DNA of 64,000 nucleotides from Escherichia coli (lineage in GTDB: Bacteria; Pseudomonadota; Gammaproteobacteria; Enterobacterales; Enterobacteriaceae): assembly GCF_044324875.1 (NCBI RefSeq), contig NZ_CP172185.1; one strand, written 5' to 3'. The notes beneath the pieces were generated by a model that saw only the letters and a program-made list of their open reading frames with translations, was not told where the DNA came from and ran no database searches. This document shows, piece by piece, positions 20,044 through 57,027 of this stretch (its first letter is position 1; each line of letters starts with the position of its first letter). The translations under genes and the position numbers were made by a program.

Positions 20044-20105
20044 CGTGTGAACGTTGGCATTACATTGCGCAGTATTTAAGGACAACACTTAAGGGTTTTC
20101 TACAC

Positions 20106-20573
20106 ATGTCAGAACAAAACAACACCGAAATGACTTTCCAGATCCAACGTATTTATACCAAGGATATTTCTTTCGAAGCGCCGAACGCGCCGCACGTTTT
20201 CCAGAAAGATTGGCAGCCAGAAGTTAAACTTGATCTGGATACGGCATCTTCTCAACTGGCAGATGACGTTTACGAAGTGGTACTGCGTGTTACCGTAACG
20301 GCCTCCCTGGGCGAAGAAACCGCGTTCCTGTGTGAAGTTCAGCAGGGCGGTATTTTCTCCATCGCGGGTATCGAAGGCACCCAGATGGCACATTGCCTGG
20401 GTGCATACTGCCCGAACATTCTGTTCCCGTATGCTCGTGAGTGCATCACCAGCATGGTATCCCGCGGTACATTCCCGCAACTGAACCTTGCGCCGGTTAA
20501 CTTCGATGCGCTGTTCATGAACTATTTGCAGCAGCAGGCTGGCGAAGGTACTGAAGAACATCAGGATGCCTGA
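20106..20573 (+). CDS. secB: Protein-export chaperone SecB
   Basis: 155-aa sequence matching SecB. Confidence 0.95.
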
Positions 20574-21592: not shown

Positions 21593-21621
21593 ACCCAGGG
21601 AACCTTTGTTACCGCTATGAC

Positions 21622-21644
21622 CCGGCCCGCGCAGAACGGGCCGG
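21622..21644 (+). terminator. GC-rich hairpin between gpsA and cysE (possible partial terminator or attenuator)
   Basis: 8-bp perfect stem ccggcccg/cgggccgg with 7-nt loop; only a weak T tract follows. Confidence 0.4.
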
Positions 21645-21671
21645 TCATTATCTCATCGTGTGGAGTAAGCA

Positions 21672-22493: not shown

Positions 22494-23048
22494 CGTCCTG
22501 TGATTGTGCCGGATGCGATGTAATTGAACTGCACCCCAAATGTTGGACATAATCTGACATCTGAAGGTGCAGTTTATGAAACATTCATTTGAAGTAAAAC
22601 TTGCCGCTGTAAATCACTACCTGGCCGGTCATGCAGGCATCATTTCTACGGCAAAACTCTTTCAACTTTCTCACACCAGCCTCTCACACTGGATTAATCT
22701 TTTTCTTCTTCACGGTCCTCGGGCACTGGATTGCAGACACAAGCGTAGCTATTCTCCTGAAGATAAACTTTGCGTGGTTCTTTATGCTCTCGGGCATTCT
22801 GAGTCTCTACCCCGGGTAGCTGCCCGGTTTAACATTCCCAGCCACAACACGGTTAAAAACTGGATAAAAGGCTACCGCAAATCTGGTAATGAGGCCTTTA
22901 TCAGGCGCTGGAAGGAGAAAAGCATGACCCGTTCTGATGATACCCATGAAAACGAGGCAAACATGACGCCGGAAGAGATGAAGAATGAGCTGCGTTATCT
23001 TCGCGCAGAAAATGCATATCTGAAAGCCATGCAGGAGCATCTCCTGGA

Positions 23049-23956
<908 letters not shown>

Positions 23957-37581: not shown

Positions 37582-39495
37582 TTACTTACGACCTGCCAGC
37601 AGTTCCAGCACTTCATCCACGCTGGTGGTGTGTGCCAGACGCTCGATGACAGACTCATCATCCAGTGCATTGGTCAGGCTGGTGATAACCTGAATGTGCT
37701 CGTTGTTACGGGCAGCAATACCAATCACCAGACGGGCAATGTCATCTTCTTCTTCACCGAAGCGCACGCCTTCCGGGTACTGGCAGAACACCACGCCCGT
37801 TTTCAGTACGCGATCTTTCGCTTCAACCGTACCGTGCGGTACCGCGATGGACTCACCCAGATAAGTCGGGGTCAGTTTTTCACGATCCAGCATCGCCTGA
37901 ACGTATTCCGGCTCAACGTAACCGCCTTTCACCAGCTGCTCGCCAGCAAAACGAATCGCTTCTTCTTTGGTGGCCGCTTTGCGACCGAGGAAGATGTTCT
38001 CCGCGCCCAGTTTGAACAGGTTAGCACTGGAATCGTCAAAGCTGTCTTTCAGACTGTCTTTCACTTTCACTTCGTTTTCAGTATGGCGCTGGGCAGCAAC
38101 CAGACGTTCGGTCAGGCTGGTGTACAGGCCGCTGTCGAGGAAGTTGGTCAGCGAAATATGCTGTGCCTGCGGAACCTGGCGCATAGCGCGTTCGGTCAGG
38201 TCACGGTGAGTGATGACCAGGTCCACATCTGGCGGCAGGTTGTTGATCGCGCTGTTAGTAACAGAAATCTGCGACAGACCTGCATCCTGAATTTTCTTAC
38301 GCAGCACACCTGCGCCCATCGCACTGGAACCCATACCGGCATCACAGGCAACGATGATTTTACGTACGTGGCTCAGGTCGTTAGTCACATCGCCCGCAGA
38401 CAGCGGGGACGCACCTTTAGACTCAGCTTTCATGTCCTGCATACGACGAGTTGCTGCTTCAATATCATCTTCTTCTTTCACTTTGCTGGTTTTCAGCAGA
38501 ATGGCAGAGACAACGAAGGAGACAGCCATCGCCGCACACACACCCGCGATGTTAGCGAAATAAGCACCTTTTGGTGTCATCGCCAGTACAGCAAGGATAG
38601 AACCCGGAGATGCCGGAGAAACCAGACCACCGCCCAGGATAGTCAGCGTGAACACGCCAGTCATACCACCGAGGATAACGGCCAGAATCAGACGCGGATT
38701 CATCAGCACATACGGGAAGTAGATTTCGTGGATACCGCCCAGGAAGTGGATGATTGCCGCACCGCCCGCAGACTGTTTAGCGCTACCACGACCAAAGAAC
38801 ATGTACGCCAGCAGCACGCCCATACCCGGACCTGGGTTAGCTTCAATCAGGAAGAAGATGGATTTACCCAGTTCATGGGACTGCTGAATGCCCAGCGGCG
38901 AGAAGATACCGTGGTTAATGGCGTTGTTGAGGAACAGGATTTTCGCCGGTTCAACAAAGATAGACGCCAGCGGCAGCATGTCATGGACAACCATGAAGTT
39001 AACGCCCGCAGCCAGCATTTTGGACAGGGCTTCAACAATCGGGCCAATGCCGAGGAATGCCAGAATAGCGAGGATCATCCCGATGATGCCTGCGGAGAAG
39101 TTATTCACCAGCATCTCAAAACCGGATTTGATCTTACCGTCTACCCAGCGGTCGAAGTGCTTAATGCACCAGCCACCCAGCGGACCTGCAATCATAGAAC
39201 CGAGGAACATCGGCATGTCTGCGCCGACGATAACGCCCATGGTGGTAATGGCACCGACTACGCCGCCACGTTCGCCGCCTACCAGCTTACCACCGGTATA
39301 ACCGATCAGCAGCGGCAGGAGATAAGTGATCATCGGCCCGACCAGCTTCGCCAGCGTTTCGTTCGGTAACCACCCTGTTGGAATAAATAACGCGGTGATG
39401 ATACCCCACGCGATAAACGCGCCGATATTTGGCATCACCATGTTGCTGAGGAAACGACCAAAGCTTTGCACTTTGATCTTAATATCGGATGACAT
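37582..39495 (-). CDS. mtlA: PTS mannitol-specific EIICBA component
   Basis: 637 aa MSSDIKIKVQSFGRFLSNMVMPNIG matching MtlA. Confidence 0.95.
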   Translation of the reverse strand: MSSDIKIKVQSFGRFLSNMVMPNIGAFIAWGIITALFIPTGWLPNETLAKLVGPMITYLLPLLIGYTGGKLVGGERGGVVGAITTMGVIVGADMPMFLGSMIAGPLGGWCIKHFDRWVDGKIKSGFEMLVNNFSAGIIGMILAILAFLGIGPIVEALSKMLAAGVNFMVVHDMLPLASIFVEPAKILFLNNAINHGIFSPLGIQQSHELGKSIFFLIEANPGPGMGVLLAYMFFGRGSAKQSAGGAAIIHFLGGIHEIYFPYVLMNPRLILAVILGGMTGVFTLTILGGGLVSPASPGSILAVLAMTPKGAYFANIAGVCAAMAVSFVVSAILLKTSKVKEEDDIEAATRRMQDMKAESKGASPLSAGDVTNDLSHVRKIIVACDAGMGSSAMGAGVLRKKIQDAGLSQISVTNSAINNLPPDVDLVITHRDLTERAMRQVPQAQHISLTNFLDSGLYTSLTERLVAAQRHTENEVKVKDSLKDSFDDSSANLFKLGAENIFLGRKAATKEEAIRFAGEQLVKGGYVEPEYVQAMLDREKLTPTYLGESIAVPHGTVEAKDRVLKTGVVFCQYPEGVRFGEEEDDIARLVIGIAARNNEHIQVITSLTNALDDESVIERLAHTTSVDEVLELLAGRK

Positions 39496-40031: not shown

Positions 40032-40394
40032 ATGTTTCTAAACTATTTCGCGTTGGGAGTGCTGATCTTCGTCTTTCTGGTGATTTTTTATGGAATCATC
40101 GCGATACATGACATCCCTTATCTGATTGCCAAAAAGCGCAACCACCCCCATGCCGACGCTATTCATACAGCGGGCTGGGTGAGCCTGTTTACTCTGCATG
40201 TTATCTGGCCGTTTCTGTGGATCTGGGCGACGCTCTATCAACCGGAGCGCGGCTGGGGCATGCAGTCACATGTTGCGTCGCAAGAGAAAGCGACTGACCC
40301 GGAAATCGCCGCACTTTCTGACCGAATTTCCCGGCTGGAGCACCAACTCGCCGCCGAGAAAAAGACTGACTATTCCACGTTCCCGGAGATCTAA
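40032..40394 (+). CDS. yibI: DUF3302-family small inner-membrane protein
   Basis: 120 aa with two predicted TM segments; N-terminal ~78 aa near-identical to the yiaW product in this window. Confidence 0.8.
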
Positions 40395-40396
40395 AT

Positions 40397-41533
40397 ATGG
40401 ATCTATTGATTGTTTTAACTTACGTGGCGCTGGCGTGGGCGGTCTTTAAAATCTTCCGCATTCCGGTGAATCAGTGGACGCTGGCGACGGCGGCGCTGGG
40501 AGGCGTGTTTCTGGTGAGTGGTTTGATTTTGTTGATGAACTACAACCACCCTTACACTTTTACCGCGCAAAAGGCAGTGATAGCGATCCCCATCACGCCA
40601 CAGGTGACGGGAATTGTTACTGAAGTCACCGACAAAAATAATCAGCTTATTCAGAAGGGCGAGGTGCTTTTTAAGCTCGACCCGGTTCGTTACCAGGCGC
40701 GAGTTGACAGACTTCAGGCTGACCTGATGACGGCGACGCATAATATAAAGACGCTGCGCGCGCAGCTCACTGAAGCGCAGGCCAACACCACCCAGGTTTC
40801 AGCGGAGCGCGACCGTCTGTTTAAAAATTATCAACGTTACCTGAAAGGCAGCCAGGCGGCGGTGAATCCGTTCTCGGAACGTGACATCGACGATGCGCGG
40901 CAAAACTTCCTCGCGCAGGACGCGCTGGTGAAAGGCTCGGTGGCGGAGCAGGCGCAGATCCAGAGCCAGCTCGACAGTATGGTTAACGGCGAGCAATCGC
41001 AGATTGTGAGCTTAAGAGCGCAACTTACTGAAGCAAAATATAACCTTGAGCAGACTGTCATTCGCGCACCAAGCAATGGCTACGTTACTCAGGTACTGAT
41101 CCGCCCAGGTACATACGCAGCTGCCTTGCCGCTACGTCCGGTGATGGTTTTCATCCCCGAGCAAAAACGGCAAATTGTCGCCCAATTTCGGCAGAACTCG
41201 CTGTTACGTCTGAAACCCGGCGATGATGCGGAAGTGGTGTTTAACGCGCTACCTGGGCAGGTGTTCCACGGCAAACTGACCAGTATTTTACCTGTCGTGC
41301 CAGGCGGTTCGTATCAGGCGCAAGGGGTATTGCAATCATTAACGGTCGTGCCCGGCACGGACGGTGTGCTGGGAACCATTGAACTGGACCCCAACGATGA
41401 TATCGATGCCTTACCCGACGGCATCTACGCCCAGGTGGCGGTTTACTCCGACCATTTCAGCCATGTTTCGGTGATGCGAAAAGTGCTGCTAAGAATGACC
41501 AGCTGGATGCATTATCTTTATTTGGATCATTGA
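40397..41533 (+). CDS. yibH: HlyD-family membrane-fusion-like protein
   Basis: 378 aa; N-terminal TM anchor, coiled coil, beta-barrel-like C-terminus; paralogue of the yiaV product. Confidence 0.8.
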
Positions 41534-41603
41534 GACTTATATCACCTGTGTTTTGCGTGAGCCTGAGCCATACTGATATTTTTCCTCGCACAAAGGACTC
41601 GGC

Positions 41604-42212
41604 ATGAAACTCGTCGGTAGCTACACCAGCCCGTTTGTACGCAAACTTTCTATTCTGTTGTTAGAAAAGGGCATAACTTTCGAATTTATTAATGAACTGC
41701 CCTATAACGCGGACAACGGCGTGGCGCAATTTAACCCGTTAGGGAAAGTGCCGGTGCTGGTGACCGAAGAGGGCGAATGCTGGTTTGATTCGCCGATCAT
41801 CGCTGAATATATTGAATTAATGAATGTCGCTCCGGCGATGTTGCCGCGCGATCCGCTGGAGTCGTTGCGGGTGCGCAAAATTGAGGCACTGGCGGATGGC
41901 ATTATGGATGCCGGGCTGGTATCGGTGCGTGAACAGGCGCGTCCAGCGGCGCAGCAGTCTGAAGATGAATTGTTACGCCAGCGGGAGAAAATCAACCGCA
42001 GTCTGGATGTGCTGGAAGGATATCTGGTCGATGGCACACTCAAAACCGATACGGTCAATCTGGCGACTATCGCCATTGCCTGTGCCGTCGGATATCTCAA
42101 TTTCCGCCGCGTTGCGCCAGGTTGGTGTGTCGACCGCCCACACTTAGTCAAACTGGTCGAAAACCTGTTTAGCCGCGAAAGTTTTGCTCGCACCGAACCG
42201 CCAAAGGCTTGA
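41604..42212 (+). CDS. yibF: Glutathione S-transferase family protein
   Basis: 202 aa with GST N- and C-domain character. Confidence 0.85.
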
Positions 42213-42309
42213 TGCGCGATATGTCCTCCTGACCCATCTCACGTTACAATCCGTGGTTATGTTAAACGCCCTTCTCCGTGTGAGAGGGCCTTGATCAGCC
42301 AGGTTTCCT

Positions 42310-43701
42310 ATGACAACCGAAACGCGTTTCCTCTATAGTCAACTTCCGGCTATTGATCGCTTATTGCGCGATAGCTCCTTCCTTTCTTTGCGTGATACTT
42401 ATGGTCACACCCGCGTGGTGGAATTGCTGCGTCAGATGCTTGACGAAGCGCGAGAAGTGATTCGTGACAGCCAGACGCTGCCCGCATGGTGTGAAAACTG
42501 GGCGCAAGAAGTCGATGCCCGACTGACGAAGGAGGCGCAGAGCGCGCTGCGTCCGGTGATCAACCTGACGGGAACCGTGCTGCATACCAACCTTGGTCGA
42601 GCTTTACAGGCGGAAGCCGCGGTGGAAGCCGTTGCGCAGGCTATGCGTTCGCCAGTGACCCTCGAGTACGATCTGGACGACGCCGGACGCGGACATCGCG
42701 ATCGGGCGCTGGCGCAGCTGCTGTGCCGTATTACGGGGGCGGAAGATGCCTGTATCGTTAATAACAATGCGGCGGCGGTGTTATTGATGTTGGCGGCCAC
42801 TGCTAGCGGGAAAGAGGTGGTGGTATCTCGCGGCGAACTGGTGGAGATTGGCGGCGCGTTTCGTATTCCTGATGTCATGCGTCAGGCAGGCTGCACCCTA
42901 CACGAAGTAGGGACCACCAACCGCACGCACGCGAATGATTATCGTCAGGCGGTGAATGAAAATACCGCACTGTTGATGAAAGTACATACCAGTAACTACA
43001 GCATTCAGGGGTTCACCAAAGCGATAGACGAAGCTGAACTGGTGGCGCTTGGCAAAGAACTGGATATTCCCGTGGTGACTGATTTAGGCAGTGGCTCGCT
43101 GGTCGATCTTAGCCAGTACGGTTTGCCGAAAGAGCCAATGCCGCAGGAGTTGATTGCGGCGGGCGTCAGTCTGGTGAGTTTCTCCGGCGACAAGTTGTTA
43201 GGCGGGCCGCAGGCAGGGATTATCGTTGGTAAAAAAGAGATGATCGCCCGCCTGCAAAGCCACCCGCTGAAGCGTGCATTACGCGCGGATAAAATGACCC
43301 TCGCGGCGCTGGAAGCCACGTTGCGTCTTTATTTACACCCTGAAGCTCTGAGTGAAAAATTACCGACCCTGCGCCTGCTTACCCGCAGCGCAGAGGTCAT
43401 TCAAATCCAGGCACAACGTTTACAGGCTCCCCTTGCCGCACATTACGGCGCGGAGTTTGCGGTACAGGTTATGCCATGTCTTTCGCAGATTGGCAGTGGT
43501 TCGCTGCCGGTTGATCGCCTGCCGAGCGCGGCATTAACGTTTACACCCCATGATGGACGCGGTAGCCACCTTGAGTCATTAGCCGCCCGCTGGCGTGAAT
43601 TGCCAGTGCCGGTGATTGGTCGTATTTATGACGGACGATTGTGGCTGGATTTACGCTGCCTTGAAGATGAGCAACGGTTTTTGGAGATGTTGTTGAAATG
43701 A
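42310..43701 (+). CDS. selA: L-seryl-tRNA(Sec) selenium transferase
   Basis: 463-aa sequence matching SelA. Confidence 0.95.
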
Positions 43702-45542
43702 TTATTGCGACTGCCGGACACGTTGACCACGGCAAAACAACCTTATTGCAGGCGATTACTGGCGTAAATGCCGATCGTCTGCCGGAAGAAAAAAAGCGCG
43801 GCATGACCATCGATCTCGGCTATGCCTACTGGCCGCAGCCGGATGGTCGCGTGCCTGGTTTTATCGACGTACCCGGTCATGAAAAGTTTCTTTCCAACAT
43901 GCTGGCGGGCGTTGGTGGTATCGATCACGCGCTGTTGGTGGTGGCGTGCGATGACGGCGTGATGGCTCAGACTCGTGAGCATCTGGCGATTTTGCAGCTG
44001 ACCGGTAACCCGATGCTGACAGTGGCGCTGACCAAAGCCGATCGCGTGGACGAAGCGCGTGTTGATGAGGTTGAACGCCAGGTAAAGGAGGTGCTGCGGG
44101 AATACGGTTTTGCTGAGGCAAAACTGTTTATCACCGCAGCAACCGAAGGTCGGGGAATTGATGCCCTGCGCGAGCATTTGCTTCAGTTACCAGAACGTGA
44201 ACACGCCAGCCAACATAGTTTCCGCCTCGCGATCGACCGTGCATTTACCGTAAAAGGTGCCGGGCTGGTCGTCACCGGTACGGCGTTAAGCGGGGAAGTG
44301 AAGGTAGGCGATTCACTCTGGCTGACTGGTGTAAATAAACCGATGCGTGTACGTGCGCTGCATGCACAAAACCAGCCAACAGAAACCGCCCATGCCGGGC
44401 AGCGTATCGCGCTTAACATCGCGGGTGATGCGGAAAAAGAGCAGATTAACCGTGGCGACTGGCTGCTTACCGATGCGCCGCCGGAGCCGTTCACACGGGT
44501 GATTGTCGAGCTTCAAACCCATACACCGCTGAACCAGTGGCAGCCGCTGCATATTCACCACGCCGCCAGCCACGTCACGGGACGCGTTTCGCTGCTTGAA
44601 GATAACCTTGCCGAGCTGGTGTTCGACACGCCGCTATGGCTGGCGGATAACGATCGCCTGGTGCTGCGCGATATCTCGGCCCGCAACACGCTGGCGGGGG
44701 CGCGTGTGGTGATGCTTAACCCGCCGCGTCGCGGTAAGCGTAAGCCGGAATATCTGCAATGGCTGGCGTCTCTTGCACGGGTGCAGAGTGATGCCGATGC
44801 GTTATCTGTTCATCTGGAACGCGGAGCGGTTAACCTTGCAGATTTCGCCTGGGCACGGCAGCTCAACGGCGAAGGGATGCGCGAACTGCTGCAACAGCCT
44901 GGTTATATTCAGGCTGGTTATAGCTTGTTGAATGCGCCGGTTGCCGCCCGCTGGCAGCGGAAAATTCTCGACACATTAGCGACTTATCATGAGCAACATC
45001 GCGATGAACCTGGTCCTGGGCGAGAACGTCTGCGACGTATGGCGTTGCCAATGGAAGATGAAGCGCTGGTACTGTTGCTGATTGAAAAGATGCGCGAAAG
45101 CGGCGACATCCTCAGTCATCACGGTTGGCTGCATCTGCCGGATCATAAAGCGGGCTTCAGCGAAGAGCAGCAGGCCATCTGGCAAAAAGCAGAGCCGCTG
45201 TTTGGTGACGAGCCGTGGTGGGTGCGTGATCTGGCAAAAGAGACGGGAACCGACGAGCAGGCAATGCGCCTGACGCTACGCCAGGCGGCGCAGCAAGGAA
45301 TTATTACCGCGATCGTTAAAGATCGTTATTACCGTAACGATCGGATTGTCGAGTTTGCCAATATGATCCGCGATCTCGATCAGGAGTGTGGTTCAACCTG
45401 CGCGGCGGATTTCCGCGATCGCTTAGGTGTTGGTCGAAAACTGGCAATTCAAATTCTGGAATATTTTGACCGCATTGGCTTTACGCGTCGTCGTGGAAAT
45501 GATCATTTATTGCGCGACGCATTATTATTTCCGGAAAAATAA
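43698..45542 (+). CDS. selB: Selenocysteine-specific translation elongation factor
   Basis: 614 aa with GTPase motifs [11 protein letters not shown] and DVPGHE; overlaps selA stop. Confidence 0.95.
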
Positions 45543-45595
45543 GGAAATGATTAATTAAGTTTTAAAATAAATTAATACAAAATTCTTATGAATTT

Positions 45596-45634
45596 AAAAA
45601 AAGCACATTGTTTAATGAATACAATGTGCTTTTT
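45596..45634 (+). terminator. Intrinsic terminator after selAB
   Basis: A-run, stem agcacattg/caatgtgct, T-run. Confidence 0.8.
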
Positions 45635-45731
45635 ATTAGATTAATTTTGATAATCAATAATACTGATCATATTTTTGAATGAAAATCCTCAGTAAGCTGC
45701 CCGCCCTTTTTTACACTTTCAGGAGTGTGTT

Positions 45732-46883
45732 ATGGCAGCTTCAACCTTTTTTATTCCTGCCGTGAATGTTATTGGTGCTGATTCATTGAATGATGCAATG
45801 AATATGATGGCAGATTATGGATTTACCCGTACCTTAATTGTCACTGACAATATGTTAACGAAATTGGGTATGGCGGGTGATGTGCAAAAAGCACTGGAAG
45901 AACGCAATATTTTTAGCGTTATTTATGATGGCACCCAACCTAACCCCACCACGGAAAACGTCGCTGCAGGTTTGAAATTACTTAAAGAAAATAATTGCGA
46001 TAGCGTGATTTCCTTAGGCGGTGGTTCTCCACACGACTGCGCAAAAGGTATTGCGCTGGTGGCAGCCAATGGTGGCGATATTCGCGATTACGAAGGCGTT
46101 GACCGCTCTGCAAAACCGCAGCTGCCGATGATCGCCATCAATACCACGGCGGGTACGGCCTCTGAAATGACCCGTTTCTGCATCATCACTGACGAAGCGC
46201 GTCATATCAAAATGGCGATTGTTGATAAACATGTAACTCCGTTGCTTTCTGTCAATGACTCCTCGCTGATGATCGGTATGCCGAAGTCACTGACCGCCGC
46301 AACGGGTATGGATGCCTTAACACACGCTATCGAAGCGTATGTCTCTATCGCTGCAACGCCGATCACTGACGCTTGCGCACTGAAAGCGGTGACCATGATT
46401 GCCGAAAACCTGCCGTTAGCCGTTGAAGATGGCAGCAATGCTAAAGCGCGTGAAGCAATGGCTTATGCCCAGTTCCTCGCTGGTATGGCGTTCAACAACG
46501 CATCTCTTGGTTATGTTCATGCGATGGCGCACCAACTGGGCGGTTTCTACAACCTGCCACACGGTGTATGTAATGCTGTTCTGCTGCCACACGTTCAGGT
46601 GTTCAACAGCAAAGTCGCTGCTGCGCGTCTGCGTGACTGTGCTGCTGCCATGGGCGTTAACGTGACAGGCAAAAATGACGCGGAAGGCGCAGAAGCGTGC
46701 ATCAATGCCATCCGTGAACTGGCGAAGAAAGTGAATATCCCGGCAGGCCTGCGTGACCTGAACGTGAAAGAAGAGGATTTCGCGGTACTGGCCACCAATG
46801 CCCTGAAAGATGCGTGTGGGTTTACTAACCCGATTCAGGCAACTCACGAAGAGATTGTGGCAATTTATCGCGCTGCGATGTAA
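45732..46883 (+). CDS. yiaY: Iron-containing alcohol dehydrogenase
   Basis: 383-aa Fe-ADH family sequence matching YiaY. Confidence 0.9.
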
Positions 46884-46896
46884 TCATCATTCCCCC

Positions 46897-46925
46897 AATG
46901 GCTGGCTAATTGTCAGCCATTTTTT
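46897..46925 (+). terminator. Intrinsic terminator after yiaY
   Basis: Stem aatggctg/cagccatt followed by TTTTT. Confidence 0.75.
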
Positions 46926-47083
46926 AAACTATCTCAAAATTTGCGATTTTTGAGAGAGTTTTAGTTATCTCTGTAACCCTTGCCCGTAAATTCGTGATAG
47001 CCGTCGTAAAGCTGTTACCGACTGGCGAAGATTTCGCCAGCCACGTCTACCCTTGTTATACCTCACACCGCAAGGAGACGATC

Positions 47084-48622
47084 ATGACCAATAATCCCCC
47101 TTCAGCACAGATTAAGCCCGGCGAGTATGGTTTCCCCCTCAAGTTAAAAACCCGCTATGACAACTTTATTGGCGGCGAATGGGTAGCCCCTGCCGATGGT
47201 GAGTATTACCAGAACCTGACGCCGGTGACCGGGCAGCTGCTGTGCGAAGTGGCGTCTTCGGGCAAACGAGACATCGATCTGGCGCTGGATGCTGCGCACA
47301 AAGTGAAAGATAAATGGGCGCACACCTCGGTGCAGGATCGTGCGGCGATTCTGTTTAAGATTGCCGATCGAATGGAACAAAACCTCGAGCTGTTAGCGAC
47401 AGCTGAAACCTGGGATAACGGCAAACCCATTCGCGAAACCAGTGCTGCTGATGTACCGCTGGCGATTGACCATTTCCGCTATTTCGCCTCGTGTATTCGG
47501 GCGCAGGAAGGTGGGATCAGTGAAGTTGATAGCGAAACCGTGGCCTATCATTTCCATGAACCGTTAGGCGTGGTGGGGCAGATTATCCCGTGGAACTTCC
47601 CGCTGCTGATGGCGAGCTGGAAAATGGCCCCTGCGCTGGCGGCGGGCAACTGCGTGGTGCTGAAACCCGCACGGCTTACCCCGCTTTCTGTACTGCTGCT
47701 AATGGAAATCGTCGGTGATTTACTGCCGCCGGGCGTGGTGAACGTGGTCAACGGTGCAGGTGGGGAAATTGGCGAATATCTGGCGACCTCGAAACGCATC
47801 GCCAAAGTGGCGTTTACCGGCTCAACGGAAGTGGGTCAACAAATTATGCAATACGCCACGCAAAACATTATTCCGGTGACGCTGGAGCTGGGCGGCAAAT
47901 CGCCAAATATCTTCTTTGCTGACGTGATGGATGAAGAAGATGCCTTTTTTGATAAAGCGCTGGAAGGCTTTGCACTGTTTGCCTTTAACCAGGGCGAAGT
48001 TTGCACCTGTCCAAGCCGTGCTTTAGTGCAGGAGTCTATCTACGAACGCTTCATGGAACGCGCCATCCGCCGTGTTGAAAGTATTCGTAGCGGTAACCCG
48101 CTCGACAGCGTGACGCAAATGGGCGCGCAGGTTTCTCACGGGCAACTGGAAACCATCCTCAACTACATTGATATTGGTAAAAAAGAGGGCGCAGACGTGC
48201 TCACCGGCGGGCGGCGCAAGCTGCTGGAAGGAGAACTGAAAGACGGCTACTACCTCGAACCGACGATTCTGTTTGGTCAGAATAATATGCGCGTGTTCCA
48301 GGAAGAAATTTTTGGTCCGGTGCTGGCGGTGACCACCTTCAAAACGATGGAAGAAGCGCTGGAGCTGGCGAACGACACACAATATGGCCTGGGCGCGGGT
48401 GTCTGGAGCCGCAACGGTAATCTGGCCTATAAGATGGGGCGCGGCATTCAGGCTGGGCGCGTGTGGACCAACTGTTATCACGCTTACCCGGCACATGCGG
48501 CGTTTGGCGGCTACAAACAGTCGGGCATCGGACGCGAAACCCATAAGATGATGCTTGAGCATTACCAGCAAACCAAGTGCCTGCTGGTGAGCTATTCGGA
48601 TAAACCGTTGGGGCTGTTCTGA
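47084..48622 (+). CDS. aldB: Aldehyde dehydrogenase B
   Basis: ORF track 5'-overextended; start [17 protein letters not shown] gives 512 aa. Confidence 0.93.
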
Positions 48623-48653
48623 TATAAGAAGCTGGTCGCATTGGGTATTCATT

Positions 48654-48737
48654 GCCTGATGCGACGCTTACGCGTTTTATCATGCCTACGGGGACCTGAC
48701 CGTAGGCCGGATAAGGCGTACACGCCGCATCCGGCAT
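48654..48737. repeat. REP/BIME element downstream of aldB
   Basis: gcctgatgcgacgcttacgcg... and gtaggccggataaggcgtacacgccgcatccggcat REP-like units. Confidence 0.8.
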
Positions 48738-48848
48738 AAACAAAGCGCACGTTGTTACAATTTACGTTTTAAACCTACGTGCGCAATAACCCAATAACCC
48801 AGACTACGCCAACAGAAGTGCGTTTCTGGGGCGTGTTTTGCCAGGAGT

Positions 48849-49061
48849 TTAATCTCGCGTTTCGATGGTGAGCGGGCGAACCAGACCATAAATCACCATT
48901 GGCGTTCCGAGGCCAATCAGCAATAAACGGTAGATAATTGAAGGTTTAATACGCTTAATCTGTACTGTGGATGTTTTACTGGAGTTATTCATTAGTTTGG
49001 CCAATAGTTCCATTATTTCAATATGATAAGCCTCGCACTGTTGAAAAGCCAGGCTGCACAT
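48849..49061 (-). CDS. Hypothetical small membrane protein (54-70 aa)
   Basis: ORF with C-terminal hydrophobic segment IIYRLLLIGLGTPMVIYGLV between aldB and yiaW; no family recognised. Confidence 0.25.
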   Translation of the reverse strand: MCSLAFQQCEAYHIEIMELLAKLMNNSSKTSTVQIKRIKPSIIYRLLLIGLGTPMVIYGLVRPLTIETRD

Positions 49062-49174
49062 TTCAGAAAGTATATAAAAAACAATATGTCGTTATATAAA
49101 TAAGGAAATTGCACCGCATTATGGTATTTCATAATATGCGTTAATTGTTCTTTTCTATATTCTCTGAGGGAAAT

Positions 49175-49498
49175 ATGTTCCTGGATTATTTTGCATTGGG
49201 AGTGCTTATTTTTGTATTTCTGGTGATATTCTATGGGATTATTATTTTACATGATGTTCCCTACCTGATTGCTAAAAAACGTAATCATCCACATGCCGAC
49301 GCCATTCATGTTGCTGGTTGGGTAAGTCTTTTTACGTTACATGTTATCTGGCCATTTTTGTGGATTTGGGCCACGCTTTACCGCCCGGAGCGGGGATGGG
49401 GAATGCAAAACCATGACTCCTCCGTTGTGCAACTACAACAGCGTATTGCCGGGCTGGAGAAACAGCTCGCCGACATCAAATCCTCTTCTGCCGAGTAA
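49175..49498 (+). CDS. yiaW: DUF3302-family small inner-membrane protein
   Basis: 107 aa from [11 protein letters not shown]; paralogue of the yibI product. Confidence 0.85.
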
Positions 49499-49503
49499 TA
49501 CTT

Positions 49504-50640
49504 ATGGATTTACTGATTATTTTAACCTATGTGGCTTTCGCATGGGCAATGTTTAAGATCTTCAAAATTCCTGTAAATAAATGGACCATTCCCACAGCGG
49601 CCCTGGGTGGCATATTTATTGTCAGCGGTTTAATTCTGTTAATGAACTATAACCATCCGTATACCTTTAAAGCGCAAAAAGCGGTTATTTCTATTCCTGT
49701 TGTCCCACAGGTGACAGGCGTGGTGATCGAAGTGACGGACAAGAAAAATACGCTGATTAAAAAAGGTGAGGTGCTATTTCGACTGGACCCGACGCGTTAT
49801 CAGGCGCGGGTGGATCGGCTGATGGCGGATATCGTTACCGCAGAACATAAACAGCGGGCGTTGGGCGCAGAGTTAGATGAGATGGCGGCGAATACTCAGC
49901 AGGCAAAGGCCACGCGGGATAAATTCGCTAAAGAGTATCAGCGTTACGCACGCGGCAGTCAGGCGAAAGTAAACCCGTTTTCAGAACGTGATATCGATGT
50001 GGCGCGGCAAAATTATCTGGCACAGGAAGCCTCCGTAAAATCAGCGGCGGCGGAACAAAAACAGATCCTGAGCCAGCTGGATAGCCTGGTGTTGGGTGAA
50101 CATTCTCAAATCGCCAGCCTGAAAGCACAGCTCGCGGAAGCAAAATATAACCTTGAGCAGACGATAGTGCGTGCGCCGAGCGATGGTTATGTGACCCAGG
50201 TACTGATTCGTCCGGGTACCTATGCCGCGTCGCTGCCGCTACGTCCGGTGATGGTGTTTATACCCGATCAGAAACGACAAATCGTGGCGCAGTTCCGTCA
50301 GAACTCCTTGCTGCGACTGGCTCCTGGCGACGATGCGGAAGTGGTGTTTAATGCTCTGCCAGGTAAGGTATTCAGCGGTAAGCTGGCAGCCATTAGTCCA
50401 GCCGTTCCCGGCGGAGCTTATCAGTCGACCGGCACCTTACAGACGTTAAACACAGCGCCGGGTTCAGATGGCGTTATCGCGACCATTGAACTGGATGAGC
50501 ATACTGATTTGAGCGCATTACCAGACGGTATTTACGCCCAGGTGGCGGTCTACTCTGATCATTTCAGCCATGTCTCGGTGATGCGCAAAGTACTGTTACG
50601 CATGACCAGCTGGGTGCATTACCTTTATCTCGATCATTAA
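49504..50640 (+). CDS. yiaV: HlyD-family membrane-fusion-like protein
   Basis: 378 aa; paralogue of the yibH product, with an almost identical C-terminal tail. Confidence 0.85.
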
Positions 50641-51611
50641 TCTTCGCTTTCCGCCGTTTGTTCAGGCCGCAGTTGCTGCGACTGAGCAAGCTGGTGGCGA
50701 ATTTCACGCAGCATTTCATCCAGCACATACTGGACCCGCCAGGGCTGGTATTCCCGTTTACGGAAGATAGCCACCAGATCCAGCCACCATTCATACGGGT
50801 GCTGAAAGCAGGGCACCAGCGTGCCGTCTTGCAGGTCGCTCTGCACACTTTTGTCTGGCGCAAACACAATCCCCAGGTGATTTCGTGCCAGCTCCAGCGC
50901 AGATTGCGTGTTGTCGCAAACGTAATTTCCCTTCACGCGATAATCCCGCACCTCTTTACTCCCGGCGACGTTGAAGCGCCAGATATTCGCGTCGTCGATC
51001 ATCATCGAGTCGATCAAAATACAGGAGTGATGTTCGAGTTCGTCAGGACGGCTAATGGGATGTTTCTCAAGATAGCGCTGGCTGGCATAAGCGGTTACGG
51101 CATATTGGGTAATAAAACTGGCAACCAGCGATTCATCTTTTGGTTGGGCGTAGCTGATTAAAACATCACAATCATCGGGAAATTCGACGCCTTCATAAAA
51201 GGCATTACGCTCAAGATTGCAGGTTTTTAGCGATAAGGTGATATCACCGATATCTTTAATTTTATCGATTACATGTTTGGATAAATAGGTAATTATGCCG
51301 GTTGGTGCATAGATAGTGACCCGACCACGTTTCTCATGCTTATAATCTGCAATAAAATTATTAAGCTGCTCGTTTCTGTCCAGCATGTCGTTGATGTACG
51401 GTAACAGCACGGTGCCAAAAGGTGTGAGCATCAGCTGTCGGGTGGTTCGGTCAAAGACTTTTAAACCCACTTTTGATTCAAAATCAGCAAGATATTTGCT
51501 GACGTTGGCCTGTGCGATGCCAAGTACAGTCGCGGCATGGCTGATATTTTCACTGGCAGCGATTACCGAGATAATTTTTAACTCCCGGTACTTAAGTTGT
51601 AATTTTGTCAT
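50637..51611 (-). CDS. yiaU: LysR-family transcriptional regulator
   Basis: 324 aa with N-terminal HTH and LysR substrate-binding domain; convergent with yiaV, stops overlap. Confidence 0.88.
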
Positions 51612-51734
51612 CGCAACAGCCCAATTATATATAATTTTATATATTACTATATAAATATGAATCTTGCACCGGATAAATTGTAAGCATTACTATGCCGACT
51701 CTTTTTTATCTTATTTTAAAATGGAATACCGGAC

Positions 51735-52475
51735 ATGTTAATTAACCGCAATATTGTGGCGTTATTTGCGTTGCCTTTTATGGCAAGCGCAACTGCTTCT
51801 GAATTATCCATTGGTGCTGGTGCGGCTTATAATGAATCGCCTTATCGCGGTTATAATGAAAATACAAAGGCAATTCCGCTGATTAGTTATGAAGGTGATA
51901 CTTTTTATGTTCGTCAGACCACGTTAGGTTTTATTCTGTCGCAAAGTGAAAAAAATGAACTTAGCCTGACCGCATCCTGGATGCCGCTGGAATTTGACCC
52001 TGCCGATAATGACGATTATGCCATGCAACAGCTTGATAAGCGTGATAGTACGGCTATGGCGGGGGTTGCCTGGTATCACCACGAGCGTTGGGGAACCGTG
52101 AAAGCCTCTGCGGCTGCGGACGTTCTGGATAACAGCAACGGCTGGGTGGGGGAGCTATCGGTATTCCACAAAATGCAGATAGGTCGCCTGTCGCTGACAC
52201 CTGCGCTGGGCGTTCTCTATTATGACGAGAATTTCAGTGACTATTACTATGGCATTTCAGAGAGTGAGTCCCGTCGTAGCGGTCTGGCAAGTTATTCCGC
52301 GCAGGATGCCTGGGTGCCCTATGTCAGCCTGACGGCAAAATACCCGATAGGAGAGCACGTCGTATTGATGGCGAGCGCAGGATACAGCGAGCTGCCGGAA
52401 GAGATTACCGACAGCCCGATGGTTGATCGTAATGAGAGTTTTACCTTTGTCACTGGCGTGAGCTGGCGTTTTTAA
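51735..52475 (+). CDS. yiaT: MipA/OmpV-family outer-membrane protein
   Basis: 246 aa with signal peptide and C-terminal aromatic residue (ends SWRF). Confidence 0.85.
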   Translation: MLINRNIVALFALPFMASATASELSIGAGAAYNESPYRGYNENTKAIPLISYEGDTFYVRQTTLGFILSQSEKNELSLTASWMPLEFDPADNDDYAMQQLDKRDSTAMAGVAWYHHERWGTVKASAAADVLDNSNGWVGELSVFHKMQIGRLSLTPALGVLYYDENFSDYYYGISESESRRSGLASYSAQDAWVPYVSLTAKYPIGEHVVLMASAGYSELPEEITDSPMVDRNESFTFVTGVSWRF

Positions 52476-52604: not shown

Positions 52605-54575
52605 CTACGGATGGCAATGCTTTTCCTCATTCACCCAGATCCGCATTTCGCCTTCACCCCGGTTGGCCCAGCTAAACCACGGGATAAACGTCAGAATTTG
52701 CGGCTGGCGTTTGGCTGGCGCGCTGTCGTAATGCCACAGCGGTTGCTGCTCTGGATTGCTCTGTTCATACCGGTAACCCGGTGCCTGGATTAAGATCTTA
52801 TGGCTGAACAATCCCTTACCTTCAAATGTCGTAAATGGCGCATCGGCGGGCAGCCACAGGTTATGCAGTGACTCGCCGTTGTCGGCCTGTTCCAGGCAAT
52901 ACACCAGCGGGCCGCGCTGAATCGCCACTTTTCCGGCGACGTGACGCACCAGAGGGTTACCGTAAACGCGGCGTACCGGCATCGGCAAAGTCAGATTCAG
53001 CGTATCGCCCTCCTGCCATTCGCGGGTAATGTGCAAATACCCTTTACGAATATCCTGCTCGACCTCTTCCCCATTCAATATGATCTGCGGCTGTGTGCAC
53101 CAGTCCGGCAGACGTAAAGCCAGCGTATGACGCACCGGCTGGGGCGATTCAACCGCAATTGTCACCTGTTCCTGCCACGGATAGTTCCCGCTAACCCGCA
53201 GGCGCAACGTGCCATTTTCTACCGGCACTTCCATGCTGTTTCCTGCGTAGATGTTGATATACAACGCATCTTCACGCGGCGTGTAGAGATAATGACCAAT
53301 CGAGGTCAGTACGCGGGCGATATTTGGCGGACAACAAGCGCAGCCAAACCAACGCTGGCGGAGCGGTTTAACGTGATCGTAGATATGGTTGAATTTCAGC
53401 GATTTTGGATGTACTTCCAGCGGATTCACATAGAAGAAATGTTTGCCATCCAGTGCCATGCCGCCGAGCACAGTGTTGTACAGCGCGCGCTCCATCACAT
53501 CGGCATATTGACTGTCGCCTTCCATTTCCAGCATTCGCCGGGCAAACATCATCAGGCCGATGGAGGCGCAACTTTCAGCGTATACCGTGTCATTCGGCAG
53601 ATCGTAATCGCTGCTGAACGCTTCACCGCTGCTTTGTGAGCCAATGCCGCCGGTAATATATAACTGACGCTGGGCCATATTGTTCCACAGCCGCAGGCAA
53701 TCCTGACGCTTGCTTTCATCGTGACTTAAACGCGCCAGATGTGCGACGCCAGTCATCAGGTAGACAAAGCGTACTGCATGTCCGATGGCGGTTTGTTGCT
53801 GTGCGATGGGCAAATGCGCCTGGCTGTAGGCTTTATCTTTCACCATCCACGCCGGGCCGTAGGTGTGCCAGTGCGAGGTCTGCCCGCGCTTTTCATATTC
53901 CTGGTCGTAATAGTGCGGTTGCGCACCACGCTGTTCGACAAAATAGTTCGTCAGCGCCAGGTAGCGCGGCTCTTCGGTCACTTCATACAGGCGCATTAGT
54001 GCCAGTTCAATTTCCGGGTGACCAGGATAACCGTGTAACTTACTTTCACCTGGACCAAATACGCTGTCGATATGATCGGCCAGACGGCAAACCACTTCCA
54101 GCAAGCGCCGCTTGCCCGTGGCCTGGAAGAAGGCGACTCCGGCTTCAATCAGATGACCGGCGCAGTAAAGTTCATGACACTCCGCCAGATTGCTCCAGCG
54201 TTCTTCGGGCGCTTTTACCGTAAAGTAAGTATTGAGATAGCCATCTTCGCACTGGGCGGAGGCGATCAGTTCAATCACCTCGTCAGCAGTTTTTTCCAGT
54301 TCGGCATCCGGCTTCTGGCACAGCGACCAGGCTACCGCTTCCAGCCATTTGGCGACGTCGCTGTCCTGAAACACCATCCCGTAAAATTCACCGTCTTGCA
54401 GTCCTGCGGCAATGCGAAAGTTTTCAATCGCATGGCTGGGTTCCGCTTCTGGGATACGATCGTTCAAGGCGTCCCACTGATAAGGAATCACCACATCGCG
54501 GACCAGTTGTTGGTACTGACCGAGGAACGGATCGCTGACCGTCAGTTTATGCAGATCGACTTCCGAAATGTTCAT
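52605..54575 (-). CDS. Glycoside hydrolase family 127 protein (DUF1680; beta-L-arabinofuranosidase-like)
   Basis: About 656 aa from MNISEVDLHKL; family assigned from overall resemblance to HypBA1-type proteins, including a Cys-rich C-terminal region. Confidence 0.65.
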   Translation of the reverse strand: MNISEVDLHKLTVSDPFLGQYQQLVRDVVIPYQWDALNDRIPEAEPSHAIENFRIAAGLQDGEFYGMVFQDSDVAKWLEAVAWSLCQKPDAELEKTADEVIELIASAQCEDGYLNTYFTVKAPEERWSNLAECHELYCAGHLIEAGVAFFQATGKRRLLEVVCRLADHIDSVFGPGESKLHGYPGHPEIELALMRLYEVTEEPRYLALTNYFVEQRGAQPHYYDQEYEKRGQTSHWHTYGPAWMVKDKAYSQAHLPIAQQQTAIGHAVRFVYLMTGVAHLARLSHDESKRQDCLRLWNNMAQRQLYITGGIGSQSSGEAFSSDYDLPNDTVYAESCASIGLMMFARRMLEMEGDSQYADVMERALYNTVLGGMALDGKHFFYVNPLEVHPKSLKFNHIYDHVKPLRQRWFGCACCPPNIARVLTSIGHYLYTPREDALYINIYAGNSMEVPVENGTLRLRVSGNYPWQEQVTIAVESPQPVRHTLALRLPDWCTQPQIILNGEEVEQDIRKGYLHITREWQEGDTLNLTLPMPVRRVYGNPLVRHVAGKVAIQRGPLVYCLEQADNGESLHNLWLPADAPFTTFEGKGLFSHKILIQAPGYRYEQSNPEQQPLWHYDSAPAKRQPQILTFIPWFSWANRGEGEMRIWVNEEKHCHP

Positions 54576-54585
54576 CTTGTGCTCC

Positions 54586-55986
54586 TTAAGGCTGTACATG
54601 ACGCTGACGCAGGTCGCTAGCAATGCGTGACATCATAGGGTTATTGAGTTTGCAAAAGCGGATCGCCATCGCCAGCAGCAGGTGGAATAGCGCAGGCAGC
54701 AATGTTTCCATTGCTGTGATCCCGCCAAGCGAACTGGCGGTCTGGTTTTCCACGCCTGGCTGGTAGGCGACAAAAATAAACAGCAGGCTGATGATCCCGG
54801 CGCTGGAGGCCCAGGCCAGCTTGATGAAAAACAGATTGAAGGCGAAGTTCATGCCGGAAGAACGTACGCGGGTTTTCCACTCGCCGTAGTCATCGGCAAA
54901 GGCCATCAATGAGAAGTGCAGTGGCAATGTGAAGCCAAGAATCACGCCATTACCGAGGATCACCGCCAGCCACAGCGTTTGATAAGCCGGGCCAGAGGGC
55001 AGGAACCACATCAACACCGCCAGCGCAGCGAGGAGCAGGTTGGTGTAGTAGTAAATTTTGACGGTATCGAAACGCCGCGTTAATGGGCTGACAATCACCG
55101 AGCCGATAATGGAGGCGAAGGTGACCATGGTGAAGAACAGCGACGTGTAGCCCGTACTGCCTTGTAAGACGTAGGTAATGAAGTACATATACCCACCGCC
55201 GCGAATATTAAAGACGTTAATCAGCAGGAAAGACATGACCAGCATCAGCAGCAGTTGGTCGTTGTTTCGCAGCCCGGCAAGATGTTCGCGCAGGGTAAAT
55301 TTCCCCATTGTGGAGAGTGGTACCCGTTCACGAACCCAGAAGAAACAGCACAGGAACATCACCACAGCGATGGCGCACAGCACGCCGACGCCCAGTTGAT
55401 AGCCGCGCGCGGCATTACCCTGACCGAAGAGATCCACCATCCACGGTAAGCCTACCGAAACCAGAAATCCCGCTACACCGCAGAGAACGAATCGCCAGGA
55501 CTGGCAGGAGATCACTTCATTGTGGCGGGTGGTCATGGTGTTGATCAGCGCGCAGTACGGCACGTTGATGGCGGTATAACCGACTGAAAGGAGCAGGTAA
55601 GTGCCGAACGCCCAGGCGATTTTTACTCCCATGCTGGCATCTGGCACGGTGAACGTCAGGATGCCGATAATGCCGATGGGAATGGCAATCCATAACTGCC
55701 ACGGACGAAAGCGCCCCCAGTGACTTTGCGTCCGGTCGGCAATGACGCCCATCACCGGGTCGGAGATGGCATCAAACACGCGCAGTGCAATAAACAGCGT
55801 GCCGACCAGCGCCGGAGTTAAGCCAAAAACGTCGGTGTAGAAAAAGGTGAGAAAGTTCATGATCAGGCAAGTTATTACGGTGCCGCCTGCGTCACCCAGG
55901 CCGTAGCCTATTTTTTCCCGTACAGATAACGCATCGTCAATTTTACCTTTAGCGATATCAGCGGTAGTAATCGGTGTAGAGGTCAT
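54586..55986 (-). CDS. Glycoside-pentoside-hexuronide (GPH) family cation symporter
   Basis: 466-aa 12-TM MFS-type protein, MelB/YicJ-like; 10 bp upstream of the GH127 gene. Confidence 0.75.
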
Positions 55987-56146
55987 AGATATTCCTCGTA
56001 AATAGGGAGCAATTTTTAGTTTTATTGCAATGACCTGATTAATTCTGCCGTGAACGGGAATATCAACAAGGCGAGAAAAGAGTAAAAAAAGGTGACGATT
56101 CCGACCTGAATTTAAAAGTGTGAATTGGATCAGGTGAAATTAATGT

Positions 56147-56165
56147 TTTTGATTAATAATCAAAA
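56147..56165. promoter_or_regulatory. Candidate operator palindrome in the divergent transporter/regulator promoter region
   Basis: ttttgatta-a-taatcaaaa, 9-bp perfect arms, about 50 bp upstream of the AraC-type gene. Confidence 0.35.
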
Positions 56166-56211
56166 GGTAATGTGTTTGATCATTAATGAATAAGCGGGAA
56201 ATTACATATCA

Positions 56212-57027
56212 ATGCTCGAATTATCCATGACGTTACCGATTAAAGTGCAAAATGGTGGATTATTTATTTCCCGTGGCGTAGGGAGGCATCCGGCAAGGCG
56301 GCTGGAGTCATGGGAAATTATCTTTGTCGAAAAAGGTCGATTAGCGATTCAGGAAGAAGAGCGGATATTTCTGGTCGATGCGGGAGAGAGTTTATTACTC
56401 TGGCCGAACCGACAGCATGTTGGGGTAGAGGATTTTCCCGCCGATCTCAAATTTTACTGGCTGCATTTTGAGGTTAAAGCGCCGGACAACGACCCGCGCT
56501 GGCTCACTCATCTTAGCGTGCCGCAACAAACAAAGGTTGCCGATCGGCAGGCGCTGGTGGCCCTGTTTCGCCAGTTCTTAAGCGAACAGGAAAAGCATCA
56601 ACGCACTCCGGCGCTGGAGTTTATTGTGCTGCTGATTTTGCAGCAACTCACCCGTGACGCGCGTCTTGATGAACAGGCCGATGCCGCAGGTACCACGCTT
56701 GCCTGGAAAGCGCAGAAACTGATCCGCACGCAATATCATCGCCCGCTTTCCACGGCGCTTTTAGCCCGCGAGCTGTACTGCAATGCCGATTATCTTGGGC
56801 GCGTCTACCGGCGGGTGTTTCATCTGACGTTAACAGAAGCAATTCATCGCCAGCGAGTGCGCGAAGCCGAAAAGCTGTTAATTAGCGAAGCGCGATCGCT
56901 CACTGAAGTGGCTGCGTTGTGCGGGTTTAATGACGTTGGCTATTTCCGACAGATTTTTCGCAAACACACCGGTTTAACGCCAGCTGCGTGGAAGCGACGT
57001 TACAGCAAGGAACATATCAATTCGTAG
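56212..57027 (+). CDS. AraC/XylS-family transcriptional regulator
   Basis: 271 aa; cupin-like N-terminus and C-terminal double-HTH region. Confidence 0.8.
   Translation: MLELSMTLPIKVQNGGLFISRGVGRHPARRLESWEIIFVEKGRLAIQEEERIFLVDAGESLLLWPNRQHVGVEDFPADLKFYWLHFEVKAPDNDPRWLTHLSVPQQTKVADRQALVALFRQFLSEQEKHQRTPALEFIVLLILQQLTRDARLDEQADAAGTTLAWKAQKLIRTQYHRPLSTALLARELYCNADYLGRVYRRVFHLTLTEAIHRQRVREAEKLLISEARSLTEVAALCGFNDVGYFRQIFRKHTGLTPAAWKRRYSKEHINS

Follow-up and report, generated by a model that had tools for sequence, protein, structure and literature searches.

Two kinds of described system come closest to the genes considered here, namely the EmrA-type adaptors (as in EmrAB-TolC and MacAB-TolC) and the aaeXAB-type operons, in which the gene of a small inner-membrane protein, AaeX, directly precedes that of an HlyD-family adaptor and the pump AaeB is part of the same operon. 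We have analysed a 64,000-nt segment of an Escherichia coli chromosome (hereafter the window, with positions counted from its first nucleotide), whose identity to most complete E. coli genomes is ~97% and reaches 99.2% for the best, and which carries two related gene pairs in direct orientation on the same strand: yibI-yibH (40032–41533) and yiaW-yiaV (49175–50640), hereafter the modules. In each of them the gene of a DUF3302 protein is followed by that of an HlyD-family adaptor-like protein. YibH and YiaV are like the EmrA-type adaptors in having an N-terminal membrane anchor as well as the lipoyl/barrel-sandwich, coiled-coil hairpin and beta-barrel Pfam domains, and the order of the two genes is that of the aaeXAB-type operons. 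However, unlike these systems, the modules have neither an adjacent pump gene nor a third gene, and the constant partner of the adaptor is a DUF3302 protein of 107–120 aa, AaeX belonging to a different small-protein family. The same genes are present in K-12, in the same order and orientation and with 97–98% nucleotide identity to those of the window; the modules are already known and annotated as paralogues, and there is nothing new in the pair itself.

As direct repeats, the modules can also be compared with the true recombinogenic repeats of E. coli, such as rhs cores, insertion sequence (IS) elements and rrn operons, which run over hundreds to thousands of base pairs at ~99–100% identity. 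The likeness is one of arrangement, as in both cases the copies lie in direct orientation and kilobases apart on the same replichore. In the window both modules are on the + strand, with a start-to-start spacing of 9,143 nt for yibI/yiaW and 9,107 nt for yibH/yiaV, and they bracket yibF, selA, selB, yiaY and aldB, as the initial annotation had correctly described. From stretches of near-identical protein sequence, it had also deduced an extended nucleotide identity that would make the pair a substrate for deleting or duplicating the selAB-aldB block. These two claims are not borne out: unlike the rhs, IS and rrn repeats, yibIH and yiaWV share only 70% identity and have a maximum identical run of 26 bp. 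We consider it highly probable that the modules are ancient, diverged paralogues held alike by purifying selection at the protein level, and that they are not an effective substrate for RecA.

At the protein level the similarity is indeed high, and the stretches that had been pointed out are real: 72 of the first 78 residues are identical between YibI and YiaW, and the 28-aa C-terminal tail is the same in YibH and YiaV, the overall amino acid identities being 77.6% and 76.7% for the two protein pairs. YibI (residues 3–78, E = 2.7e-41) and YiaW (E = 2.7e-43) match the Pfam family PF11742 (DUF3302) with scores of 140 and 146 bits against a gathering cutoff of 32, which places both within the family. 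In YibH and YiaV the adaptor domains CusB_dom_1 (56–57 bits), HlyD_D23 (42 bits) and HlyD_3 (27–33 bits) all exceed their cutoffs, and the solved structure closest to YibH by sequence is that of EmrA (8zar, E = 1.7e-11), followed by MacA and AcrA.

A distinct picture results from the comparison of the DNA. The codon-aligned identity is 69.8% in both gene pairs, and the best ungapped segments correspond to 71% over 300 nt, 77% over 245 nt and 86% over 124 nt. The proportion of differing synonymous sites (pS) is 0.79 and 0.76, which exceeds the Jukes-Cantor saturation limit, at a nonsynonymous divergence (dN) of ~0.18, and third-position identity along the module genes is 0.3–0.5. As the synonymous sites are saturated, it is selection at the protein level that maintains the similarity. 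The homologous segment is the 1.5-kb two-gene unit only: homology ends ~12 nt 5' of the start codons, with no alignment between the promoter regions, the spacer between aldB and yiaW shows no homology to the region upstream of yibI, and the modules have unrelated neighbours, namely mtlA and yibF in one case and aldB and yiaU in the other.

The exact identical runs between the modules measure 26, 22, 20, 17 and 14 bp in the window, with none above 26, and 26, 23 and 20 bp in K-12. Permuting the codon columns leads one to expect a longest run of 17.7 ± 3.5 bp, P(≥26) being 0.037. The longest runs of E. whittamii, nine Citrobacter genomes and Pseudocitrobacter measure 14–31 bp and fall at differing gene positions, so that these are chance runs within protein-conserved stretches and not conserved tracts. 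The absence of identical runs over about 25–50 bp had been put forward as what would speak against recombination, and the modules sit at the very edge of this threshold, with one run of 26 bp and none longer. Nowhere do they offer an uninterrupted identity well above the MEPS (minimal efficient processing segment, about 25–30 bp in E. coli) within a high overall identity.

The expected rate of exchange can be judged from published relations between divergence and recombination. The bacterial MEPS is at most ~30 identical bp, recombination at an identical block is poorer with diverged homology on its flanks than with heterology, and mismatch repair aborts an exchange begun in a short identical block with diverged flanks (PMC8918686). 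RecABCD recombination drops ~100-fold at 22% divergence, no recombinants were obtained through the Red pathway at 52% divergence (<1e-8), and a divergence of 4% is reported to lower chromosomal recombination ~1000-fold (PMC2327257). From these relations we infer a low recombination rate between the modules: at 30% divergence, crossing-over is expected to be extremely rare, though not strictly impossible, and a deletion of selAB would in addition be selected against.

The genomes sampled, 5,426 complete E. coli genomes, are in agreement with this expectation. A deletion was searched for using the mtlA-side flank joined to the yiaU-side flank, for which a recombinant would give one joined match. 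The junction was found in 0/5,426 genomes, with a maximal query coverage of 50%, and the mtlA and yiaU flanks were never ≤2 kb apart. Coverage of the selA-selB pair (42310–45542, + strand) reaches 80% or more in 5,425 of the genomes, and the sole exception misses the entire neighbourhood including both outer flanks, and is thus not the predicted hybrid. The search for strains lacking selAB and carrying a hybrid yibI/yiaW-yibH/yiaV junction, which had been suggested as a check, hence returned none in this sample. A query made of the aldB 3' end and the yibF/selA 5' end, corresponding to the duplication junction, was equally without matches (0/5,426), a count which junctions in strains with rhsA downstream of yibH would escape. 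In metagenome contigs, the hybrid resulting from a crossover in the 26-bp run gave 0 matches versus 107 for the parental yibH, and with a parental control of only this size the metagenome screen adds little power beyond the complete genomes. Chimeric windows were absent from the 76 correctly registered full-length metagenomic yibH copies. An apparent chimera in the metagenomic copy L176 was rejected, being an indel misregistration (20–30% identity to both parents).

Some points weigh in the opposite direction, and would favour modules that are an active substrate for RecA-dependent unequal crossing-over, deleting or tandemly duplicating yibF-selAB-yiaY-aldB. In addition to the direct orientation at 9.1 kb, there is one 26-bp run that meets the lower bound of the MEPS, along with two of 20–22 bp, such that homeologous crossing-over is not strictly impossible; in fact, joints in 16–17-nt blocks do arise in RecABCD-dependent events at 22% divergence, at ~3e-6 on phage lambda (PMC2327257). 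One complete genome has two separate selA-selB matches and is a candidate for a second copy, the duplication-junction query is blind to strains carrying rhsA 3' of yibH, and the lack of recombinants could also reflect selection against the loss of selAB, and not only a low event rate. Against active crossing-over stand the 30% divergence with saturated synonymous sites, the action of mismatch repair on short identical blocks with diverged flanks, and the outcome of both screens at the tested junctions and at the best crossover site. Further, 30% of E. coli hold one module and hence no repeat, and in K-12 and many strains the copies are separated further, to 17.3 kb, by the 8.3-kb rhsA element. 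We therefore give active crossing-over almost no credence. With ~70% DNA identity and saturated synonymous sites, the modules are very probably not an effective RecA substrate, and in practice no deletion or duplication of the selAB-aldB block would result from them.

Within the same sample, yibIH (including yibH) is found in 5,406 of the genomes and yiaWV in 3,804 (70%), being missing from ~30%; yibIH is thus core and yiaWV accessory in E. coli. Genomes without yiaWV, such as a Nissle derivative (locus L001), have a pure yibIH, with YibH 100% identical in amino acids, and retain the selAB-aldB block. In L001, aldB is only 46 bp from sgbE (annotated araD; L001 16457–16502), to be compared with 48623–52475 in the window and 19532–23722 in locus L082. 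This state, that of B2-type E. coli, is a deletion of yiaW-yiaV-yiaU-yiaT, from aldB to sgbE, whose end points fall outside both modules and which is unrelated to recombination between them. There is no yibIH match at all in 20/5,426 genomes, and in the O157:H7 strain Z892 (NZ_CP062758.1) the last ~100 nt of yibH only are found, beside a DUF2810 gene, a deletion on the mtl side having taken most of yibIH. The RHS element rhsA-yibA-yibG, of 8.3 kb, sits between yibH and yibF, and hence between the modules, in K-12 and many strains (L082 4262–12548), increasing their distance in K-12 to 17.3 kb versus 9.1 kb in the window, which has a 70-bp yibH-yibF spacer only (41534–41603). Its RHS cores are genuine long repeats, unlike the modules. 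A gene for a Fic-family protein lies between yiaY and aldB in B2-type and O157:H7 genomes (L001 13515–14810), and is absent from this place in the window (46884–47083) and in K-12.

Recurrent gene conversion between the modules could in principle also keep the DUF3302 domain and the C-terminal tail of YibH/YiaV alike. Indeed, over the last 30 codons of yibH/yiaV the third-position identity is raised to 0.73 and pS lowered to 0.48, versus ~0.4 and 0.77 elsewhere, and the within-genome identity of the tail in Escherichia (0.74, 0.63) somewhat exceeds the cross-genome mean of 0.55. However, the tail is just as slow at third positions among orthologues and in comparison to Yersinia or Klebsiella (0.5–0.7), and its third-position entropy is low across all 91 sequences (1.0 versus a mean of 1.28), because its codons are mostly those of M, W, H, Y, D, F and K, with few or no synonymous alternatives. 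Also, Citrobacter tails have no within-genome excess (0.37–0.54), and pS in the DUF3302 region amounts to 0.82–0.93. Conversion in the tail was thus rejected, as orthologues and outgroups give the same signal and codon composition explains it. The tail comparison covers just 35 sites, which leave room for a small old conversion patch in Escherichia, and recurrent conversion as the cause of the conserved stretches is very improbable.

The age and origin of the pair were addressed by a scan of one genome per species and a subsequent tblastn mapping of synteny, which covered 80 genome loci. The order mtlA-yibI-yibH-yibF-selA-selB-(yiaY)-aldB is kept in Escherichia, Citrobacter, Enterobacter, Lelliottia, Leclercia, Klebsiella, Raoultella, Yokenella and Trabulsiella, and Kluyvera has the same gene order with mtlA not alongside. 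In this species scan the only carriers of yiaWV are Escherichia, Citrobacter and Pseudocitrobacter vendiensis, and yiaU and yiaT come immediately after aldB in Enterobacter, Lelliottia and Leclercia, with no yiaWV between. Lone modules occur in other contexts in Buttiauxella, Serratia, Yersinia, Edaphovirga and on a Pantoea plasmid (L063). The module adaptors form one cluster at 50% identity, the next relatives being 36–44% identical. Within this family, E. coli YibH is 81–83% identical to the Yersinia and Serratia proteins versus 77% to E. coli YiaV, and YiaV is about equidistant (73–79% in amino acids) from every YibH-type protein.

In a neighbour-joining tree of the 378-aa adaptor protein (200 bootstraps, rooted with seven relatives at 36–44% identity) the YiaV clade is monophyletic in 200/200 bootstraps and sister to all YibH-type proteins, including those of Yersinia, Serratia, Buttiauxella and Pantoea, in 159/200; a sister position to YibH of Escherichia/Citrobacter alone is recovered in 0/200. 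The quartet-informative sites, which require no outgroup, are distributed 7:0:0 in the HlyD gene and 3:0:0 in the DUF3302 gene, and in both of them YiaV/YiaW group with the Yersinia-type module, opposed to Escherichia/Citrobacter and other Enterobacteriaceae. A rooting by outgroup-consensus characters was dropped, as it had only 2 informative sites and the outgroups are diverse and 36–44% identical. It must be considered that the trees are neighbour-joining trees of one 378-aa protein, and that long-branch attraction could pull the long YiaV stem, with 28 unique consensus changes versus 5 for the Yersinia-type group, to a basal position. As judged from these sequences, the yibI/yiaW and yibH/yiaV genes have one shared history, having diverged as a unit, and the yiaWV/yibIH split predates the diversification of the sampled Enterobacterales modules.

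The initial annotation had viewed the modules as an old segmental duplication. The age is supported, and is in fact greater than had been implied, but an in-situ segmental event is not. Both genes are paralogous, with the same order, spacing and history in the two modules (equal nucleotide identity and the same quartet topology), as a duplication in situ would predict. The copies are not mutual closest relatives (0/200 bootstraps; 7:0:0), the homology is limited to 1.5 kb and does not extend into flanking non-coding DNA or neighbours, yiaWV falls outside the yibIH-type modules, and other genera have aldB and yiaU adjacent. The duplication is very old, and an in-situ segmental event unlikely.

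A related possibility is that the resident yibIH was duplicated locally in the ancestor of Escherichia and Citrobacter, and that the yiaWV copy then went through a phase of rapid evolution, which gives it the appearance of age. This would account for two copies on the same strand 9 kb apart, for the confinement of yiaWV to Escherichia, Citrobacter and Pseudocitrobacter, and for the long YiaV stem; also, no closer YiaV donor lineage was found among 5.8 billion proteins, YiaV-type sequences at 83–99% identity being followed by a gap to 79%. Nevertheless, a nested origin predicts that YiaV should be ~9 points closer to Escherichia/Citrobacter YibH, whereas it is about equidistant from all YibH-type proteins, and both the rooted bootstraps and the quartet sites of the two genes oppose it. 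Moreover, YiaW retains the Yersinia-type residues I24, L25, V46 and R70, which are changed in YibI of Escherichia, Citrobacter and Enterobacter, present-day YiaV is not clearly faster-evolving than YibH across the same species, and the G+C content at third codon positions (GC3) is 0.45 in yiaW and 0.54 in yiaV versus 0.64 in yibI and 0.62 in yibH. On balance, local duplication is improbable.

Alternatively, yiaWV may be a xenologue from a deep-branching, unsampled lineage, put between aldB and yiaU by horizontal transfer. The patchy distribution, the aldB-yiaU adjacency in other genera, the basal position in the tree, the accessory status in E. coli and the occurrence of a module of the same family on a Pantoea plasmid are all compatible with such a transfer. 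The lower GC3 extends over yiaW-yiaV-yiaU-yiaT (49175–52475), with 0.45–0.54 versus 0.57–0.64 in yibI, yibH, aldB, selA, selB and mtlA, yiaY being also low (0.50). In Pseudocitrobacter vendiensis (L076 10001–11134 and 18599–19732) YiaV is 90% but YibH 81% identical to the E. coli counterparts, a discordance which hints at the horizontal movement of one module. Conversely, the search of 5.8 billion proteins disclosed no donor lineage, no mobile-element genes or integration scars are seen at the borders, where repetitive extragenic palindromic (REP) elements are the sole repeats, and ancient paralogy with many losses fits the same tree. The lower GC3, the patchy distribution, the Pseudocitrobacter discordance and the accessory status lean mildly towards an insertion of yiaWV, and its origin as a transferred xenologue is a serious possibility, although one to which we would give somewhat less than an even chance.

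Our preferred reading of the modules as ancient, diverged paralogues can then be outlined as follows. yibI-yibH and yiaW-yiaV would be ancient copies of a conserved two-gene unit, whose first gene is predicted to code for a small two-helix DUF3302 protein of the inner membrane and the second, translationally close-coupled, for a membrane-anchored HlyD/EmrA-like periplasmic adaptor. Purifying selection would keep the proteins alike, the DNA having drifted to ~70% identity. yibIH would be the core copy, vertically inherited beside mtlA throughout Enterobacteriaceae, and yiaWV an accessory copy between aldB and yiaU, whose separation from the yibIH lineage would be older than the diversification of the sampled Enterobacterales modules.

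In respect to function, the two genes of the modules are separated by 2–5 nt, the yibH start being 2 nt past the yibI stop codon, and the DUF3302-HlyD pairing is kept in relatives at 43–44% identity. No transporter or pump gene (MFS, ABC, RND or AaeB-type) adjoins the modules in the window, in the 80 genome loci or in these relatives. In relatives 44% identical to YibH (L083 3985–6149, L084 187–2351) the gene of a DUF3313 protein is found immediately 5' of the DUF3302-adaptor pair, which suggests that the unit also exists as a set of three genes. In the DUF3302 protein two hydrophobic helices are accompanied by a short tail of coiled-coil-like character; the adaptor resembles EmrA in its N-terminal membrane anchor, its hairpin and its lipoyl and barrel domains. 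These features point, at low confidence, to a small adaptor-type complex spanning the inner membrane and periplasm as the most likely product of the modules; with similar caution, the pump partner of the adaptor, if any, may be encoded elsewhere, or the DUF3302 protein may itself be the membrane partner. In the literature on yibH, yiaV, yibI, yiaW and DUF3302 we found no mechanistic study, only mentions of expression and fitness. yibI is induced by urine in uropathogenic E. coli (UPEC), and when it is deleted the bacteria adhere less and are less fit in urine, with a competitive index of 0.33 (PMC5404293), and yibI-yibH and yiaW-yiaV are listed among the uncharacterised clusters of the E. coli y-ome (PMC11551758).

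Table 1. Coordinates of the modules, the bracketed block and adjoining features in the window (ORF, open reading frame; PTS, phosphotransferase system; Sec, selenocysteine).
Feature	Position	Strand	Description	Basis
mtlA	37582..39495	-	PTS mannitol transporter; conserved left neighbour of yibIH across Enterobacteriaceae	ORF and RefSeq annotation
yibI	40032..40394	+	DUF3302 small inner-membrane protein, 120 aa; module 1, gene 1	Pfam; yibI in E. coli records
yibH	40397..41533	+	HlyD-family membrane-fusion (periplasmic adaptor)-like protein, 378 aa; module 1, gene 2	Pfam
26-bp run	41030..41055 = 50137-50162	+	Longest exact match between modules; encodes EAKYNLEQT	Exact-run search
yibF	41604..42212	+	Glutathione S-transferase; first gene of bracketed block	ORF, synteny, RefSeq
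selA	42310-43701	+	Selenocysteine synthase	
selB	43698-45542	+	Sec-specific elongation factor	
yiaY	45732..46883	+	Iron-type alcohol / L-threonine dehydrogenase	ORF and annotation
aldB	47084..48622	+	Aldehyde dehydrogenase B	Matches 1,539-nt RefSeq gene
aldB-yiaW intergenic	48623..49174		552 bp, REP-like palindromic repeats	Sequence inspection
yiaW	49175..49498	+	DUF3302 protein, 107 aa; module 2, gene 1	Pfam; annotated yiaW
yiaV	49504..50640	+	HlyD-family adaptor-like protein, 378 aa; module 2, gene 2	Pfam
yiaU	50637-51611	-	LysR regulator	Pfam
yiaT	51735-52475	+	MipA family	Pfam

Some gene boundaries in Table 1 depart from a plain listing of ORFs. The true ATG of aldB, at 47084, lies within a longer GTG-start ORF, and the yiaW ATG at 49175 agrees with the 324-nt RefSeq gene, the listed ORF extending to a TTG at 49145. 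The stop codon of yiaV and the 3' end of the convergent yiaU overlap by 4 nt. In the spacer between aldB and yiaW, beside the REP-like palindromes (~48650–48760), there is a 70-aa ORF with one hydrophobic stretch (48849–49061, - strand), for which a Pfam search gave no match; at the corresponding site the K-12 RefSeq record shows a hypothetical protein that is shorter (144 nt). Scanning the surroundings of both modules for promoter and terminator consensus sequences gave counts at the level of shuffled sequence and nothing usable. Further downstream, between yiaT and the sgb genes (52605–57027), the window carries genes for a GH127 beta-L-arabinofuranosidase-like protein (~655–672 aa, - strand), an MFS_2 sugar transporter (466 aa, - strand) and an AraC-type regulator (271 aa, + strand), a cluster of which K-12 has pseudogene fragments only (an incomplete hypothetical protein and an incomplete AraC regulator).

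A wider, tentative proposal joins origin and function: yiaWV might be a deep-branching xenologous unit inserted at aldB-yiaU in the Escherichia/Citrobacter ancestor, and the DUF3302-HlyD pair a pump-independent, two-protein envelope device present in two versions with distinct roles. We regard this as rather doubtful; if true, the core yibIH would be the copy tied to the fitness of UPEC in urine. The pairing of a DUF3302 protein and an adaptor, conserved down to ~43% identity without a pump gene, in any case frames work on these y-ome genes. More generally, the results illustrate that a strong protein conservation between paralogues says nothing on their nucleotide identity once synonymous sites are saturated. 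For the selenocysteine-synthesis locus, the suspected instability is removed, selAB being among the most stably present loci in the E. coli genomes sampled.

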